Position numbers and translations under genes: made by a program. Below the pieces are notes generated by a model. The model made no database searches, was not told where the DNA came from, and saw nothing but the letters and a program-made list of their open reading frames with translations. A stretch of 63,706 nt of DNA, counting the filler, from Rhabdomonas costata (Eukaryota): assembly GCA_019059605.1 (NCBI GenBank). It is 49 parts of 49 records of this genome, joined end to end, with 100 filler letters (N's around TTAATTAATTAA, not from the genome) between each part and the next. Parts side by side here need not be neighbours in the genome. Positions count along the whole stretch, not along the records: positions 49,485 to 50,686 come from JAHMHO010023794.1; 48 more parts are not named here. One strand, written 5' to 3'. The first letter of the stretch is position 1. Every line of letters starts with the position of its first letter. Shown here piece by piece: positions 3,180 through 50,788 of the stretch.

Positions 3180-5993
3180 CTGAAGGGAGGAAGATGGCGG
3201 GGTGTGTGGGTGAGTGCGGAAGGTTCTAGCGGCGCTCCGTTCCGGGGAACAAGGCGAACTGAGATGGGGGAAATTCACTTCTGAGGGCCATAATTTACCA
3301 TATGGTATCCCATAACATGCTGCACCGGTGCTGTAACGTGGCACAACATAAGCGGACGCCCAATCGTAATCGTAAATGTTAAAAGATTAGATGACAAACA
3401 CAGAATATGCACACTCACGAAGGGAGGGGGTGTAATATCCCCCCAGGCGGCGCGCGTCCTGACCGGGACACCTTTCCTTTTCTTCCCCTTTTCTTTTCCC
3501 TTTTACCCATCTCTCGTCCTCCATCTTTTTCTTCCGCGCACAATACAGACACAAAATTATACAAATATTTTCACTGTCTCAGCCAAAGAAGTGGGGGTGT
3601 AGTGCAGCTGTGTGCACCTTCATCCGAGCGTAGTGTCGCCAGAAAATCTGCAGGCCGTGGTCTTTTGTGTCGCAGTCCGTCCTCTGGCACAGCGTCACCG
3701 TGCGTTGCTGCTCCCCGCGTAGCGCCGGAAAAAGGGAAATCCCTGCCCACCGCTCAATGGTCTCCAGTGACGTCTGCATCGCCCCCCCCCCCCAAACACA
3801 CCCACCACNNNNNNNNNNNNNNNNNNNNNNNNNNNNNNNNNNNNNNNNNNNNTTAATTAATTAANNNNNNNNNNNNNNNNNNNNNNNNNNNNNNNNNNNN
3901 NNNNNNNNCGGCCTGAAGAAAGGTGGCGATGTCTCCCTGGAGCCAGATCACGCTGTGGGTGGAGAGGCCATCCACCAGGAAGGAGCGGAGGATTAAGCTT
4001 TCTTCCGGAGGAGCTTAGGGCCTGAGGAAGGGCCGCTGCAGGGATGCAGGCGGTGATTCTCAAGGTTCGCTGCCACAGGATGGCGCCACGGGTGGCGAGG
4101 GAGGACACGTCCACGAGGCGGCGGGAAGGAGGCAGCATGGCGCTCAGCATCCAAAAATGGCGCGGGTGCCCCCCATTTGCCGTGGAGGCCCAGTCAAAAG
4201 CCCAGCGCTCATACAACTCCAGGGCGAGCAACACAGCGTCAGCGGCTGCGAGGAGGTACCGGGGCCGGGCCTTGGAAGAAGCGGTGGAGGCAGAGGTGTC
4301 CACAAGGAGGGTGATGTGGACGGCGGCGTACGAGCAGAAGGCGTATGCCTTCCGCACTAGGATGAGGTTCTCCTGCAGTGAGGTGGAGGAGCCGGGGACT
4401 GCAGGAGGGAGCCGGCAAGGCATTGGCAGTGGGAGCCTCGCTGGGACTGGTGGACTGGTGGCTAGGGCGCTGCGGTGGAGGCCGGGCGCTGCAGTATCAC
4501 GAGGAAGATACTGTGTGGAAAAGTAGTGATCTGGGTGAGCTTCTCGATGGAAGGGAGGGAGTGGGGTAGGAATAATACCACGTCGACGTTAACAGCCAAA
4601 TCTGCCGGCCGGAGTGACAGAGGAACGGGATCTGCGGCAGTGGCGGAGCTGGGGCCCCGCTGAGCCCCAAACTTGGGGCAGTTGCCGTGCTCCGCGTGGA
4701 TCGCCCGTTTCCTGGCTTTCCGGGTTGGAGACCATCTGCTGCCGGGTGGATGAGCGGAAGAGGAAGAGAAATAGCGGTTGGGACGTGGACCGAGGAAACC
4801 CGGTTTCCGATCTGAAGTGGTAGGGCGCTATTATCCGGCATGCCTGTATGAAACCGGCCGCTATCCACCTCTGCGCGTGGAGGCAGGGAGCCATGATTTT
4901 ATTTACACAGACTAATGCCCTTCATTCCCATCATCAAACTTACGAAGTTACTTTGACATCAACCTCCCTCTAGTCACCATGGCTTCACCCATTTTGACAT
5001 CATCTACATCCTTCACGCAAACACTTTATAACTCGTCTTTTCAACTCCAACTGTACCTCCAGACCATTCGCGGCAACACCGATTACCTGTGCTTCGGCTC
5101 ACACACCCCCANNNNNNNNNNNNNNNNNNNNNNNNNNNNNNNNNNNNNNNNNNNNTTAATTAATTAANNNNNNNNNNNNNNNNNNNNNNNNNNNNNNNNN
5201 NNNNNNNNNNNGTGGGGTTGGTCATCCCAGCATCATCTCTACGCTTCAACCCAACGATGGAGTGAGACAGAACGCACTGACCCACCGAGTCGAAGGGATG
5301 AAGCGTAGAGATGATGCTGGGATGACCAACCCTAACCCTTCAACCCAACGTAAGCCTAAACCTAAGGGGTGTATTCCTCTACGGCTACGCCAAGGACGGA
5401 CCGAGCGTACCGATGTGAGTCGGGGAGCGAGGGAAGTGACACGTATAGGTGAGTTGGAGTGGGAGGGACTGAGCGAACCATCCCTATGGTGGGTAGCGAA
5501 GGACCGACAGAGGGTTAAAGGCATACTCAACGGGGAATGAAGGCCTTGAGGGGTTAATGGCTGGTCGTATGCTCAGTGCCTTCGCATACTCCCTACGTAT
5601 GGTGGTTCGTGCATTCCAGCGAATTGACCAACTTTTTGACCAATTTTTAAGTGTCAGCTGTTCTTGAGCCCAACTCGAGAACCCGAGATTTTAGAAGACC
5701 ACAGTAGAAAAGGACTTCAGACAACTTCAGCAAAGCAGAACCTGCCCTTGTTTCTTTCTTTTGTATGCGTTATGCTTTGCAATGGGTGGTAGATTAAATC
5801 GCTTTTGATTTACTCGAATATCTTTTTGATTTTTATTTGAATCAACTGTGATCGATTTATTACAAGGAAAGTAAAGTTGCTGTTGTGAACTAATTCCGAA
5901 TTCGCACAAATAACCAGGAAAGCATCACTTTCCGCAAAATCTCGGTAAAAACACGCAGCACCCCAGTTTCTAATGCTGTGGTGTCTTGGACAG

Positions 5994-6174
5994 GTGTGTC
6001 TCCATCAAGAATTATTTACGCGAATCCTTGCAAGACTCCCGCCTACATCGCCAGAGCTTCGGCACTTGGGGTCTGCCGCATGACTTTTGATAACGAGTTT
6101 GAGATTGACAAGATGCGTGAGAACCATCCCAACGCTGAACTGGTGCTTCGACTAGCCGTATCTGGGAGGTCTGC
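5994..6174 (+). CDS. ODC: Ornithine decarboxylase exon (PLP-dependent group IV decarboxylase); 3' boundary approximate
   Basis: CAG acceptor at 5991-5993. GVSPSRIIYANPCKTPAYIARA...MTFDNEFEIDKMRENHPNAELVLRLA matches the ODC motifs RIIYANPCK and MTFD..E..K...LVLR. Several GT donors are possible between 6158 and 6182. Confidence 0.9.
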
Positions 6175-6514
6175 GTATGAAGTCAAGGGGTGCTTTTTGC
6201 TTTGCTTCCGTGGCTGTTGTTGTTTGCTGAAGGCAACTGCCCGACCTATTGCTCCATGCAAATGACCATTTGGCTTGTCCTTCATTTGCCGTCAAAAAAT
6301 GTCAGAGTATCATGTCTAAGTCAAAGTCCCCAAGCCTAGGGTGTTGTCTGGGCGTAGTTGTTCCACCAACCGGTCTAAATCCCACTCTTCTACATGAGGC
6401 ACAACCACACCCACNNNNNNNNNNNNNNNNNNNNNNNNNNNNNNNNNNNNNNNNNNNNTTAATTAATTAANNNNNNNNNNNNNNNNNNNNNNNNNNNNNN
6501 NNNNNNNNNNNNNN

Positions 6515-22145: not shown

Positions 22146-23139
22146 TGTTGGGGTTGGTCGTGGTGCCCTGCTTGCCGAGCTGGCGCAGAATGTCCTCCTG
22201 AAGCTGGACCACCGGGATTTCCAGCACAAGGGAGACGTTCAGGTAGGGCATCGACCAGCTCGCCGCCAACACTGCGCCGTATCCCCCTGAGCCCACAACG
22301 TTCAGAGACGTCCCATTCCCACTGCTTACCGCGGCCTCGGCCGCGGGGTCGAAGGTGCACAGCGATCCCTGGCAGAGTGGCATCGGCGCAGTCATGAGAA
22401 CTCCAGGGCTCGCGGGCTGTACCAGCGCGATGCTCGAGTCATCAGAAGGGTCATTGAAGAGAGCCGTGTTGACCACGTTGGCCGCCGTGATGACATACTT
22501 CTGAAATGTGGACTGGTCCGATACGAAGGGTAGAATATAAAGCACGCCCAAACCGCCTCCACCACAAGCTGTCAAGATGCGGGATGCCATAAACGCGCTG
22601 GCCATGTTATAGGACTGCCCCAGAAAGCTCCCCCCGGACGAGGTCAGCGACATCGCCATGGCGGCGCGGAAGTCGTCGGTATAATTGGAGCACCCAGGGT
22701 TTGGGCTGTGGCCCATGCAGTTCCGCAGTGGGGTCAGCGGAGAAGGAGCGCCACTGAAATCAGAACGCATGAAAGAAAAAGACGTTCGAGTGATCCACCC
22801 ATCAAACGCCGAAAGCCCGCAAACATACGTCGCGTTGCTAACCAGAATCGCTTCAAAACCGGCAGGATACTGCTCCACATTCGTTCGATTCATAACAGCC
22901 ACCAACGCATCGAGGTCCATCAGTCCCATCTGGCACTGCACCGTGAAGGTGTTCGCAAGAACACGGACTCGAGACAGCGCACGGTCCTTGGCCACGGAGA
23001 GGAACATGTTGTCCGTGAGCATCGCCGCGATTCGGGTGGCACCAAGGGCCCGCTGGGTGCTAGTGGCCACGTTGGCGTCGTAGCCCACGCCCTGCACCAC
23101 GTCGGCGAGCATTTCCGCTGTGGCCAGCTGGCTGGTCAG
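22146..23139 (-). CDS. Large exon (about 330 aa, truncated by the contig end) of an extracellular Cache-like repeat receptor
   Basis: Long stop-free frame after a tttcag acceptor. GYGAVLAASWSMPYLNVSLVLEIP resembles Cache C-terminal strands. Confidence 0.65.
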
Positions 23140-23448
23140 CTGAAACATAGATGCGAAGAATGAAAAAAGGAAGAGAAGAAAAAAGGCCGGCTGAAGGTGG
23201 TGGTGGACTTCGGGTCGGGGTTCAGCGTCATCAGAAGATACGCATCGTTGGGTACGTGGGGACAGGATTCATAAGCTCTCTTGTCCGAGGTGAACCACAC
23301 TCTGCACATCCGATGACTTTTAGTGTCCCATGTGGTGTACAAAACCACNNNNNNNNNNNNNNNNNNNNNNNNNNNNNNNNNNNNNNNNNNNNTTAATTAA
23401 TTAANNNNNNNNNNNNNNNNNNNNNNNNNNNNNNNNNNNNNNNNNNNN

Positions 23449-28986: not shown

Positions 28987-29742
28987 GTGGCCAAGCGGTA
29001 CCGGCACAAGTACGGCTTCCTGGAAGAGTGGCGCAGCCTCCGCATGGGGGCCTCGCTTGCTGAGAAGTTCAACGCGGAGCTTTGCCGCAACCCCCCGCCC
29101 CCCGCTATAACCGGGGGCCTGGAGTGCAAGGTGAGCTTCTTGGCCTGGGACCGCATCTTGGACTACGCTGGAGACCTCTACACCGTGGAGTCGTTCTTGG
29201 AGGGTTTCTTTCTCCCCGTCCCGTGGAGTGAAGTCGTTGTCCTACGTGCAGTTGTTATTGATTGTGTTTTGAATCTAAAAAATGAAACGCCTTCAAATCC
29301 TGTGACGGCTGTGACAGTATGTCCACCCAAAAAACAAATCGTCGAACCGTGCGTCACGCGCATGGGAAACTTTTTGTACGTTACACAGACGCGGGACGGA
29401 ACTCCAAATGAGACTCCTAGCGCCTCTGCCGCGAAATTAGGGGACTCTGAGAAAACGCAATAGGAAATCGAACATCTTCGCTGACCTTCACTGGACAGAC
29501 AAACGTATACACGCACTCGGTTTGGTGGTCACCCAACTCCCTTCCAAGGGAACTTCTGCAAGTACAACAACATCTTCGGGGGAGAGGAGATGATCCCTCA
29601 CGGCCCTGCGGAGCAGCTGTGCTGCTACCTCGCTGGGGCGTACTCCCACTTCACTTTTGTGCAGTCGGGGCACCGCTACATGATCCTGGACGTTCAGGGC
29701 GTGGGGGCCACGTTCACAGACGTCGCCGTGGTCAGCCTGAAG
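28987..29742 (+). CDS. Alpha-kinase (eEF2K/MHCK family), two exons (28987-29203, 29549-29742)
   Basis: The 345-nt GT-AG intron joins in frame: VAKRY...LAEKFN...VESFLEG|NFCKYNN...AYSHFTFVQSGHRYMILDVQGVG. Confidence 0.9.
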
Positions 29743-30410
29743 GTTGCTTTATGTGCAGCTGTGGGGCATTGTCGTAATTTCAAAACGTCAAAAGGTGGTC
29801 AGGGTCAGGTCACGTCAGGTCAGGGTTACGTCTAATTTTGAAATTACGACAATGCCCCACAACANNNNNNNNNNNNNNNNNNNNNNNNNNNNNNNNNNNN
29901 NNNNNNNNTTAATTAATTAANNNNNNNNNNNNNNNNNNNNNNNNNNNNNNNNNNNNNNNNNNNNTTGTGTGTTGGAGGTTGGGGCGTTGGTTGATGTTGG
30001 CGTGGGAGCTTGGGTCTTTAGGGTCTGGGTGTCTGTGGGATTGGCGTTGGGGGTTGGAGCCACGGATGCCATGATGGGAGTAGATCCATGCCTGAGGGGC
30101 TGACCTTACGCAAAGGCTAACCCTACGCATGATGCAAACTAAAACGGATGATGCTACCTGCGGTGCCAATCCAACCTCCTACACCGGTCATGCCTCGTAC
30201 CTCGACATGCCCTCATGCCCCTAAGCTGATGAATCCCAATGGTACAGTGTGCTGAAGTGGAGCCCGCAGGAGGGCGACTGAGAGCAGCAGCAGAAGAAGG
30301 GTGAGGGCCCCGCTAAGATGAAGATAGAAGATGTAAGAAAAGAAAGAAGAAAAGAGAAGAAGAGAAGAAGAGAAGATGCCCTCCGGGCCACGCTCTCGCT
30401 AGGCTCGTCA

Positions 30411-33912: not shown

Positions 33913-34470
33913 GCACCAAGGTGGAGCTTGGGCCGGAGCGGTTCACGTGCTGTGAGGCGCTGTTCAACCCCTCTGTGATTGGGGTGGAGAAGACCAAAGG
34001 GGTTCACGCCACGGCGATCGACTCCATTCGCAAGTGCGACGCCGATATCAGTACGTCAGTTGTGAAGAGGATGGGATGCTGCACTTCTGGAATTATAATG
34101 CTGGACCACGACTGGGTTGTGAATCAGCGTCTTATTTGCGGCGTGCTCCTTGATGTTCATTTTGAATGACCATACATTTGGGTTTCCCGGAACGGTCCAT
34201 TGATGCTTTTTGACCACCAGTTAGCGGATCTTTTGCCGTTGGGGGTCTGCATTATCCTTCTTTCCTTCTCTGAATGTCCGCAGGGAATCTTGAAAGGCCT
34301 GACTAGAGCTCTTTCCATTACCCCTTTCATTTCACGCCCAGTGCCCCACCTGTACGGCAACGTTGTGCTGGCCGGGGGCACGACGATGTTCTCGGGAATG
34401 CCCGAGCGCCTGCACAAGGAGATGGCCGACCTGGCGCCTGCGGAGAAGGTGAAGGTCTTCGCCGCCACAG
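33913..34470 (+). CDS. Actin-like/actin-related protein, two exons (33913-34050, 34342-34470)
   Basis: The 291-nt GT-AG intron joins in frame: [17 protein letters not shown]...[36 protein letters not shown]. Too divergent for conventional actin. Confidence 0.92.
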
Positions 34471-36277
34471 GTGCGGGACGCTCTCTGTGTGTGTATCGGT
34501 CTGCTTACTCAACTTTCTTGGATCAGTTTTGCTCACGCTTTTCTTTTCTCACCTGAAAGCTTTAGGTGCCCCTGGGACCTTGCGGCATGGTTTTTGATGA
34601 TAGCTTCGTAGCTGGGGGTCTTTCTTTTTTAGTAAAACATCCCGTTTTTCCCGTTGACTTTCCATTTCGCGCAAGCGAGGAGTATGGGTAGTTCTCCAAA
34701 AAGTCAAAGCCATTGCGCAGTTTCTCCTGGGAAAAATGGAGTGGAGTTGTATGGAGGTTCTTTTGAAGGAGCGATTGACGGTGACACATGGAAAGGCGAG
34801 CGGGAGTAGCAGTTGCGGGGCCTACAGGACGGCCTTTCTCGAGGAAATTATGTCAGCTCTATCCTCATTTCAATTTGGCCAGAAACTCACTTAGTTTGTG
34901 ACTATTACAATGCACAGCGCTGACAACGAGGCCCTCGGTCAGGCTTTAATCGTCGAAGAAGCAAAAATAAGGAAAAGTTGGAAAAGATCCCAATGTCTGT
35001 TTTGGCTTATCCCTCAACTGACCCAAAAATGCAAACTCCTCCGCCCCACACGTCGCTCAACAACCCACNNNNNNNNNNNNNNNNNNNNNNNNNNNNNNNN
35101 NNNNNNNNNNNNTTAATTAATTAANNNNNNNNNNNNNNNNNNNNNNNNNNNNNNNNNNNNNNNNNNNNGACCGGCCGAGAGGGGACAGTTCAGGACATCC
35201 CCATTCCCGGAACGGGACCAGCCTGTACAATCCTTGAGAAATTGCTCAGCGTCAGCCGAAGGTTCTATTTCCCACCACGGCTGAGAACCCTATCCGCAAC
35301 TGCGCAAACCTCATAGCATCACACGCAGCAAGCAAAAACAGAAAAATTATACCGTTCTCCTGGGCCACATGATTTACCAACATAAGTCAATGTTGCATCT
35401 TGGTGTGTGTTTCGAAATTAAGAAAAAGCAGACGGAGACGTTTGGCACAGTACACTACCTCCTGTTTTTTTTGTTCATTTTAAAATCCTGAAAATGTCAT
35501 CTCAATATCTCACTTCCTTTTTGCAATAAAAAACGCACACTCTCTTTATTTTTAAAGTTGCAAATTAAGCTTGTATGTTACTATTTGTCCTCTTCAGTAA
35601 TAATTATTTTTTCAGTCCCTCTGGAACAACACACACTGCAACAACAGTGGGGAAGGTTTGTTTTTCTTTACGTGGCGGAGGACCGTCCCCCACGGCTTGG
35701 AAAGTTGCCTGGGGTGGGGGCGAGGCGAAGGTTAGTAGTCGCAGCGGTTGTGCTGCAGAGTTTTGGTGGTGAAATTTTTGTGGCACGTGGGGGGGAGGGG
35801 CAATATGACCAAATAATCCGGAAATCGAAATGCGTTTACTTTGTCGAAGCGAGTAGTGAATCGGAGTCAGTTCTTCCCGAGATGCAAGTGTTTTAGTTTG
35901 TAGGTGGGATTGATACTGATGTTTTGCCGCTGTCCTGTTGGTCACTTCACAGACCACAATATAAACTTATGCTCACACTACCCCCGCAAAACACGTTTTT
36001 GCGGTCAAGAAACGCCGCCCCAGCGCCCAAACTGTGCTGTACGATGACCGAGTGTAAGTTTTTGTCTTCTTCTGTTGCGAAGTAAACAGTAAAAATTTTT
36101 GTTACGCTAATACCAACCCCCCCACACACACACACACACCCAAAGCACCTTCAACTTGCTCTCAACCTTATTCTGTTTCCCGTCGTTGCTCTGCAATTCT
36201 TTCGCTCACTGTTTCGTTGGACGCTCGGCTTTGTTTGGTTCGTGCTGATACTCGTGCCGCGCGATCCACATGTGCAG

Positions 36278-48765: not shown

Positions 48766-49484
48766 CTTACCTCTTTACAGGACAAAGCTGTAAACATCGT
48801 ATCTTCGCTTTCTCAATGAACATACGCACAGCTGGGCTGCCTCCCCACGCGCACGATAGAAACGCTGTGGGCATTGGTTGCTTCCTTCATGGTTGCTTCC
48901 TTTTTGCACTCGCAAAATACAAACGCCATGCTGTGCAAACAAAAAACCTTCCAACACATTGGTTATAACCAACCAGGTTTTTTGCGCCCTGCACAGCCCA
49001 GTCCCAGCCTAATAAGGCGTTTTTCCGAACCCCAAAATCATCAAGCTGGGTCGATTTCCGGAGGTCGATTTTTTCACCCTGAAAACCCCATATTCGACCC
49101 TTTGCAAGAGCCTGGTAGTGCTCAAAAAGGCCATTTTAAAGGCAAAAAATAAGCTAAAAACCGCAGCAAACGATCTCAAAAACGGCTCAAATCGGCCTAA
49201 AAACGCGTTTTTCCGAACCCAGCAAGGGAAATCACTACAAAGCGTCATTCGAACAAAAAAAATTCAGTAGCATCCCATATAGTGGCCCTGTTTCCTCGCA
49301 AAGAGGTCCCAATACCTGGGTATCATTTCCAGGCAGAACAAAGGCAAGCCTCTCCGAAACCACACCCCAACCACACCCACCACANNNNNNNNNNNNNNNN
49401 NNNNNNNNNNNNNNNNNNNNNNNNNNNNTTAATTAATTAANNNNNNNNNNNNNNNNNNNNNNNNNNNNNNNNNNNNNNNNNNNN

Positions 49485-49756
49485 TCCACGACAAACTGGT
49501 GGTCCAGAAGTCTAACGTTGGTGGGGTTGACGTAGCTCCAGGTGTAGATCTCCTTCATGTACTCAGGAACTCCGGTGGTCCACTTGCTGTCCAGCCGCTC
49601 CGGGCCTCGAACAATGTTTTCCACGCTGATCGCTGCAGCTTCCTGCAGGTCAGGGCGCTTGCTGGTGAGCGTCCGGCGGGCGGCAAAGGAAAGCCGGGGG
49701 CCAGCGGCTCGGCGAGCGGCCTGGCCGACCAGGGAGCGGATCGAAGAGGCAGACAT
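49485..49756 (-). CDS. rquA: Rhodoquinone biosynthesis protein RquA, N-terminal 90 aa with mitochondrial-type presequence (truncated by the contig end)
   Basis: GVPEYMKEIYTWSYVNPTNVRLLDHQFVV matches the RquA N-terminal motif PxYxxxxYxWAYxxPxxVxxxxxxxxV. It is preceded by Arg/Ala/Ser-rich MSASSIRSLVGQAARRAAGPRLSFAARRTLTS. Confidence 0.82.
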
Positions 49757-50788
49757 CGGTGCAAAGAAAACAGCAGCGAGCGTAAGCCTCTCTGGTGGAG
49801 TTGTGAGGAGGAAGGGAAGCATGAAATTTCGTTCGCTGGGGTGATTTGGAACCCTAGCTCGCGTGTCCAACCCGGTCCCGGCTCCTCTGTCCGGGAGTCT
49901 TCTTGTGGAAATCCCAAGTGTAAAAAACTCTAGAATAGTGAAACTGTGTGTGCAGAGGGGCTCTGCTGTGAATTTGGCTGCGTGCGGCTGCAGTCACTTT
50001 GATATGAAGGTTAAAATAAGTACACTGTCACTTTTAATTAAAGGTGGAGTGAAAAAAAGCTTGCTTGTGTCCAAAAAAATACTCCAGACCTTACAGATAG
50101 ATATGGTTCTGCATTTTCAAGATTACAACCGCTGAGAAGACTCGCTTGAATAAATAGACAGCATTGGACCCTTCCACGCCCTCGTCGGTCGTTGGATCCG
50201 AGCAACGTGGCTGAATATCATGTATCATTTATCATTTATCATATTTAGTTTCTTCTGCAAAGTTCACAGCAGAAGATTTTTCAACGTATGGGGTTCGGCA
50301 TTTTCAAAAGAAAAATTGCTCATACAGCTCTTTTCTTCAAAATCGAAGCACAGCACTGCAACCAAGGCTCACGAGTTCTTGTTGCATAAATAGATAATTT
50401 GATACAAAATGCTGAACAGAAAATCAGAAAAGAGAAGCATCAAAAGAATTGAGATTTTGAGATCCCCCCTGCCACACAAACAAAAAGTGTTTCAAGAATG
50501 AAGTAGGTGGAAAAAGAGGAGTAAACAAAACCTGCGTTTTCAATAACGTTTTTCCTTTAAGGATGGTCTCCCCGTAAGGGAGGTAGAGGTCAATCCGCTC
50601 AACCCTCGCAAGACAACTTCGTTGACCCGTTGCTGGAGGTGTACACTAACACACCCCTCCTTGGCCTTAACTTTGCACAAACAAACNNNNNNNNNNNNNN
50701 NNNNNNNNNNNNNNNNNNNNNNNNNNNNNNTTAATTAATTAANNNNNNNNNNNNNNNNNNNNNNNNNNNNNNNNNNNNNNNNNNNNTT

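Follow-up and report, generated by a model that had tools for sequence, protein, structure and literature searches.

The stretch of DNA analysed here (the window), 63,706 nucleotides of the Rhabdomonas costata assembly GCA_019059605.1, very probably carries the 5′ end of a working rquA gene from the nuclear genome of a euglenid. On sequence evidence, the fragment is orthologous to full-length RquA. The finding, which had been predicted from the DNA alone as a mitochondrion-targeted RquA, is real and correctly named, and it is already known.

The rquA Fragment and Its Contig

The window consists of 49 unrelated contigs of about 1.2 kb each, joined by 100-base linkers, from an assembly of 97 Mb in 104,289 contigs. 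Because unlinked contigs are concatenated in it, no gene-neighbourhood argument can be made for rquA, and an analysis of its neighbourhood was dropped. One of the contigs, C23794, carries 90 stop-free codons on the minus strand (window 49756-49487), whose translation ends in the RquA signature stretch; the contig breaks off mid-codon inside the gene. The features of this region are as follows.

49385..49484, no strand: artificial 100-base linker (N, TTAATTAATTAA, N); the contig past the linker is unrelated
49485..50686, no strand: rquA-bearing contig (G000:C23794), 1202 bases, with 930 bases upstream of the gene
49485..49486, minus strand: last two bases, GA, before the assembly break; they fit the Asp codon that comes next in 8 of 8 full-length relatives aligned
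49487..49756, minus strand: first 90 codons of rquA, truncated by the contig end; these probably make up the greater part of exon 1
49487..49570, minus strand: RquA core, residues 63-90, matching positions 1-28 of NF038261 (E = 3.4e-8)
49571..49651, minus strand: linker, residues 36-62, conserved in the closest relatives by alignment and outside the RquA model
49652..49756, minus strand: predicted mitochondrial presequence, residues 1-35, judged by composition (no Asp or Glu; rich in Arg, Ala, and Ser)
49757..49791, minus strand: predicted 35-nt 5′ untranslated region, as implied by the candidate acceptor
49792..49819, minus strand: candidate trans-splicing acceptor, a C-rich tract (21 of 25 pyrimidines, 14 C) followed by CAG
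49820..49822, minus strand: ATG in frame with the gene, 22 codons ahead of its start; probably in the outron and unused

The GC content is 62.5% in the coding part of rquA (76% at third codon positions, GC3) and 43.5% in the upstream DNA. The 930 upstream bases gave no coding match, and no intron is visible on the contig.

Many contigs of the window have peculiar ends. The first 8 bases consist only of G and T in 27 of the 49 contigs, and the last 8 only of C and A in 35 of the 49, with about 0.2 expected in each case. These are presumably relics of whole-genome-amplification primers, and contig ends in the window are unreliable as genomic sequence. No primer-like relic of this kind is present at the break within rquA.

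Elsewhere in the window, a Pfam scan of 120 of the 206 frames of at least 95 residues gave three matches, all to exons on the plus strand: an actin-related protein (34170-34553), a PLP-dependent Orn/Arg-type decarboxylase (5894-6262), and an alpha-kinase (29485-29832). An open frame of 374 codons on the minus strand (22147-23268) fills nearly an entire contig and has a protein-like composition, with no match in Pfam.

Identity of the Encoded Protein

The 90-residue fragment matched a single one of 18,950 NCBIfam models at E ≤ 1, namely NF038261 (RquA), with residues 63-90 aligned to positions 1-28 of 218 (E = 3.4e-8, 33.5 bits). The curated cut-off of this model, 175 bits, is a whole-protein score, which a fragment covering only 28 of 218 positions cannot reach. 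These 28 positions form an N-terminal RquA block that is absent from the UbiE/Coq5 models. No UbiE/MenG model matched the fragment in the NCBIfam scan at E ≤ 1, and Pfam gave no significant match for it.

A search of longer proteins with the fragment returned four matches among 485 candidates, the best of which is 84% identical across all 90 residues (E = 3.1e-38). P0006 (291 residues), a member of the same cluster as this best match, is 92% identical to the fragment, leader included, and P0002 is 84-88% identical. On NF038261, the four matches score 244-263 bits and seven more relatives 244-286 bits (P0006, 259 bits), so all 11 full-length relatives scanned exceed the cut-off of 175 bits. The same four proteins reach at most 35 bits on the UbiE/MenG models (NF001240, NF001243, and TIGR02752), whose cut-offs are 235-420 bits. 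The RquA identity given in the original prediction is thus borne out by two of the checks it had named, the profile and the protein search, and the protein groups with RquA rather than with UbiE/MenG/Coq5.

The continuation that had been expected beyond the break, L(L/W)FGN, needs a small correction: the closest relatives read D-A-I-L-F-F-N, and the GN form is found in other relatives. Among the 43 proteins matched by the search expression out of 183, 22 have (I/L)LFFN, the form of the closest relatives, and 19 have (I/L)L(W/F)GN.

Two further family features were found in the relatives at sites that lie beyond the contig end in the gene of the window. An altered SAM-binding motif I, QV(G/A)HxxG, is present in 14 of 14 relatives, and two Asp residues lie exactly 25 residues apart in 13 of the 14, the exception being P0169, which has a short insertion. 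Judged by this spacing rather than by alignment, the two Asp residues may be equivalent to D118 and D143 of the Rhodospirillum rubrum enzyme. The contig holds 28 of 218 core positions and ends before the SAM-binding residues of the organism's own gene. A PDB search with P0006 matched no solved structure by sequence at E ≤ 0.01.

A quinone methyltransferase of the UbiE/Coq5 type whose N-terminus resembles that of RquA would account for the name that JGI gives to several relatives ("ubiquinone/menaquinone biosynthesis C-methylase UbiE") and for the Pfam results, which comprise generic methyltransferase matches only. Against the contrast in scores between the RquA and UbiE/MenG models, and a motif I that lacks the canonical glycine-rich form in the relatives, this explanation is hardly credible, and the JGI label is an automatic misnomer.

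Leader and Predicted Mitochondrial Targeting

The first 30 residues comprise six Arg, seven Ala, and five Ser, with no Asp or Glu. Acidic residues begin at position 36, and residues 36-90 hold eight of them in 55 positions, which leaves a leader of residues 1-35 that is acid-free and net basic. The layout proposed earlier, a 30-residue leader followed by the RquA signature, therefore needs revision: the acid-free, Arg/Ala/Ser-rich character stands, but the leader is 35 residues long and a 27-residue linker intervenes. Acid-free first 30 residues are common to nine of nine relatives tested. The helical hydrophobic moment of the leader was not above that of shuffled sequences (p = 0.55).

From its composition and its homologues, the leader is predicted to be a mitochondrial presequence; targeting is the softest step of the mechanism proposed below. 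It was reported that every full-length eukaryotic RquA homologue has a predicted mitochondrial targeting signal, and that the mitochondrial location of RquA was confirmed by microscopy in Pygsuia (Stairs 2018, PMC5953543). In the paper on the mitochondrial proteome of Euglena gracilis, the term "rquA" is absent from the main text, supplements aside (PMC7403612).

Start Codon, 5′ End, and Origin of the Contig

A C-rich tract followed by CAG, as found upstream of the start codon, is the outron pattern reported for E. gracilis (PMC11170887). In the relative transcript L005, 35 nt separate the spliced-leader-like end from the ATG. The in-frame upstream ATG, which sits at the start of the pyrimidine tract, was rejected as a start because the relatives P0002 and P0006 begin at the second Met; it is probably removed with the outron. 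The candidate acceptor, the non-coding upstream DNA, and the placement in the tree favour a euglenid origin of the gene.

A contig derived from another organism in the sample, either a second eukaryote or a bacterium, would be silent on the mitochondrion of the main genome. Such an origin is conceivable in that rquA is described as moving laterally between eukaryotes (PMC5953543; bioRxiv 10.64898/2026.04.08.717022), and in that two intron-free stretches of pyruvate:ferredoxin oxidoreductase (PFO) in the assembly, on C969 (60-61% GC) and C61426 (43% GC), may be bacterial. However, the gene has a basic N-terminal extension that its bacterial relatives lack, is preceded by 930 non-coding bases with a euglenid-type candidate acceptor, and groups with a transcript bearing a spliced-leader-like end. 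The GC content of the whole contig, 48%, lies inside the range of the window contigs (39-60%), and the nearest named bacterial RquA is only 47% identical to P0006. A foreign source of the contig is thus considered very improbable.

Missing Remainder of the Gene

Residues 91-290, or about 200 codons, were not recovered in the organism's own genome by searches with the family model NF038261, the proteins P0002 and P0010, two conserved-motif patterns (0 matches each), and the DNA of the relative L004. Only C23794 itself and an 18-codon piece on another contig, C75156, were returned as RquA-like, and the recovery of the rest of the gene that had been suggested with the original prediction yielded nothing beyond this short piece. 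A further candidate on C17578 (L003) was rejected as a chance match (E = 0.088, 29% identity).

Missing exons are usual in this assembly. Cytochrome c1 is represented by one match over 74 of 219 positions and WS/DGAT by 36 of 263 positions, and the genome search is prone to miss short exons. With other genes equally incomplete and short exons missed, the missing remainder counts only weakly against a functional gene. An intron as the cause of the break was rejected, since proteins called from genomic fragments of relatives, P0074 and P0131, continue for about 35 more residues before they drop out of the alignment; they suggest that exon 1 extends about 35 residues past the break here as well. 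The best explanation is that the gene stops at the contig edge through an assembly break and not through damage to the gene.

The piece could instead be a 5′ fragment or a recent pseudogene of rquA, the working copy being elsewhere or absent. This would fit the failure to recover residues 91-290 and the other RquA-like piece, on C75156, which after 18 codons diverges from the family in a normally conserved part of RquA. On the other hand, the 90 codons contain no stop or frameshift; the start codon, leader, and candidate acceptor are intact; and other genes are as incomplete in this assembly. Over 29 core codons, moreover, synonymous and replacement differences number 13 and 3 against L005 and 9 and 2 against L004. 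Such mostly synonymous differences indicate that the fragment evolved under constraint, a pattern with which a very recent loss would still be compatible. On balance, a degenerate copy is quite improbable, and a functional gene cut by the assembly is preferred.

Phylogenetic Placement

A tree was built from 62 rows chosen from 183 proteins (near full length, plus the fragment as P0001) in a quick version with SH-aLRT values and without bootstrap; it had no UbiE outgroup and, except for one bacterial protein, no named group A or B references. The fragment, which fills 29% of the tree columns, pairs with P0006 (SH-aLRT 87) inside a nine-row clade (SH-aLRT 100). Another member of this clade is P0003; the T-run and CG at the start of its transcript L005 resemble the euglenid spliced-leader end as printed (PMC8219788).

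Around this nine-row clade lies a 17-row clade (SH-aLRT 96), whose other subclade holds P0166 and P0169 with GDACxMEN, the peptide hand-translated from the forward primer used in RNAi of E. gracilis rquA (PMC6587861). The subclade of the window's gene has GDAS where this sister subclade has GDAC. The peptide of the reverse primer, DAELRKQF, had no exact match among the 183 proteins, and 12 of them fit a looser form. By this placement, the gene of the window belongs to the euglenid RquA type.

Within the euglenid-type clade, P0167, P0015, and P0171 group closely together (SH-aLRT 99). The source of P0171 is an ENA contig of 603 kb, and both P0171 and P0015 drop out of the alignment at one and the same Arg codon, as would be expected at an intron. 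These three may be the sponge genes of a 2026 preprint.

Host and Its Probable Anaerobic Metabolism

The host was assessed from its own genome. Paraflagellar rod searches gave nine matches in exon-sized (intron-split) pieces, against none in 14 control genomes. The best match of the cytochrome c1 exon was PDB 8IUF, which we take to be the E. gracilis supercomplex (88 bits vs. 68 for the next). Searching with TIGR02176 returned 20 PFO matches, including exon-sized, intron-split pieces on C21069, C5236, C58101, C39191, and C5174, and one PFO piece has a long N-terminal extension before POR_N. The last frame on C5174 ends in what is presumably the start motif of a flavodoxin domain, which would make this PFO a PNO; the last exon of the corresponding locus (L022) gave no Pfam match for such a PFO-flavodoxin fusion. 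One WS/DGAT (wax-synthase) exon passes its cut-off. These matches support a euglenid host that has complex III together with parts of the routes for anaerobic pyruvate oxidation and wax-ester formation. On the whole, the facultatively anaerobic mitochondrion that had been deduced from rquA is supported.

Several PFO pieces overlap on different contigs (L016-L022, on C50220, C53844, C21069, C58101, C39191, C5236, and C5174); for example, model positions 517-739 are covered on C53844 and 625-767 on C39191. The overlaps point to more than one PFO/PNO gene in the assembly. There are also long intron-free PFO matches on C969 (L011, L014, and L015; 60-61% GC), C61426 (L012; 43%), and C19919 (L013; 53%), and it is possible that these represent bacterial contigs or processed copies.

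Proposed Function

For the missing two thirds of the gene, and for the targeting, activity, and physiology of its product, the following scheme is what we infer. The pre-mRNA would be trans-spliced at the CAG located 35 nt before the ATG. The resulting protein of about 290 residues would enter the mitochondrion by means of its basic presequence of 35 residues, as composition and homologues suggest. By orthology, a class I SAM-methyltransferase fold would bind SAM through the two aspartates, and RquA with Mn2+ would replace a methoxy group of ubiquinone by the SAM amino group, yielding rhodoquinone (RQ). At low oxygen, rhodoquinol would pass electrons from complex I to complex II working as a fumarate reductase. 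It may also feed ETF and acyl-CoA dehydrogenase for wax-ester fermentation, as in E. gracilis.

The chemistry is known from R. rubrum RquA, which was reported to convert ubiquinone to rhodoquinone in vitro with SAM as the amino donor and Mn2+, and without PLP (Neupane 2022, PMC9814641). Joint replacement of D118 and D143 abolishes RQ synthesis by this enzyme (PMC9814641). With regard to physiology, RQ9 fell from 51.6 to 1.10 pmol per million cells upon RNAi against rquA in E. gracilis (Nakazawa 2018, PMC6587861). Silencing also cut anaerobic wax esters to one third, and the authors proposed a route from complex I through RQ to ETF/acyl-CoA dehydrogenase (PMC6587861). The role first assigned to RQ, fumarate reduction, is therefore retained but was too narrow, as RQ in E. 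gracilis is described as also feeding ETF/acyl-CoA dehydrogenase (PMC6587861).

A Second RquA-like Piece

On the contig C75156 (L002, 21-118), 18 codons with the same protein sequence as euglenid RquA are followed by 11 diverged codons and then by a GTAAG donor. The 18-codon piece is identical to L004 and L005 at 48-49 of 54 bases. The 11 diverged codons stay weakly in register, with Pro-Phe at the right place and the nearly invariant Glu of the LEPF motif replaced by Ala. In post hoc comparisons, their BLOSUM62 score against P0006 is 9; of the 82,456 stop-free 11-mers in the window, 0.5% attain this value. At the DNA level, 17 of 33 bases match L004 (null fraction 0.1%) and 14 of 33 match L005 (null fraction 2.6%), again post hoc. 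The diverged stretch occurs in none of the 183 retrieved proteins. A DNA search with L002:19-330 found only itself in the assembly, by which a repeat, or a join with another assembled contig, was rejected.

One possible reading of this piece is an exon of the same rquA gene that ends at the GT at L002:68. At this point P0015 and P0171, and perhaps P0170, likewise drop out of the alignment; P0014, which is 95% identical to P0006, reads through it unbroken and thus argues against such an exon. An amplification chimera is also possible. That the euglenid has a second, diverged RquA-like gene (a paralogue) on this contig appears unlikely from the sequence. If the diverged stretch is exonic, it would mark a paralogue whose helix has been remodelled and which may act on a different quinone or in regulation; a true second rquA paralogue would be new. 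Multiple rquA genes were reported in the ciliate Spirostomum (PMC7813818). No title on RquA paralogues in euglenids turned up in our literature search, a result that speaks only weakly for their absence.

Relation to Known Systems and Significance

That the pathway is already described, as the original prediction had conceded, holds true: euglenid rquA is part of the 2018 survey (PMC5953543), and its function and physiology are in print (PMC6587861, PMC8219788). A close precedent is the report on the heterotrophic euglenid Rhabdomonas costata, which arrived at the same inference of a facultatively anaerobic mitochondrion (Soukal 2021, PMC8219788). Its predicted mitochondrial proteome lists a rhodoquinone "methyltransferase", PNO, ETF, fumarate reductase, and WS/DGAT (PMC8219788). 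That report is a transcriptome annotation whose sequence lies outside the main text (PMC8219788).

RquA of E. gracilis is likewise the product of a euglenid nuclear gene (PMC6587861), and proteins with its primer peptide fall in the 17-row clade of the window's protein. They form the sister subclade and are about 68% identical to P0006; their link to E. gracilis is the primer peptide. Group A RquA was described as uniting euglenids with Blastocystis, Proteromonas, and neoparamoebids and as having an altered motif I; membership of the window's RquA in this group is taken from that survey and not from the tree (Stairs 2018, PMC5953543). As for R. rubrum RquA (PMC9814641), the same model, NF038261, is matched, and 13 of 14 relatives keep two Asp residues at the D118/D143 spacing. 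In contrast, the R. rubrum enzyme is bacterial and has no presequence, and the contig of the window covers 28 model positions only.

RquA of freshwater sponges was reported to be nested among euglenozoan RquA and to have a mitochondrial presequence (bioRxiv 10.64898/2026.04.08.717022). The sponge is an animal recipient, whereas the genome of the window, with its paraflagellar rod genes and Euglena-like cytochrome c1, is on the donor side of this transfer.

Overall, rquA soundly marks this euglenid as probably able to make rhodoquinone and to keep its mitochondrion working in the absence of oxygen, which is the expected state. What the gene of the window adds is small and evolutionary. This RquA type comprises two sister subclades, and the gene belongs to the one without the E. 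gracilis-like motif. Further sequences of this kind would help to identify the euglenozoan lineage that donated rquA to freshwater sponges.
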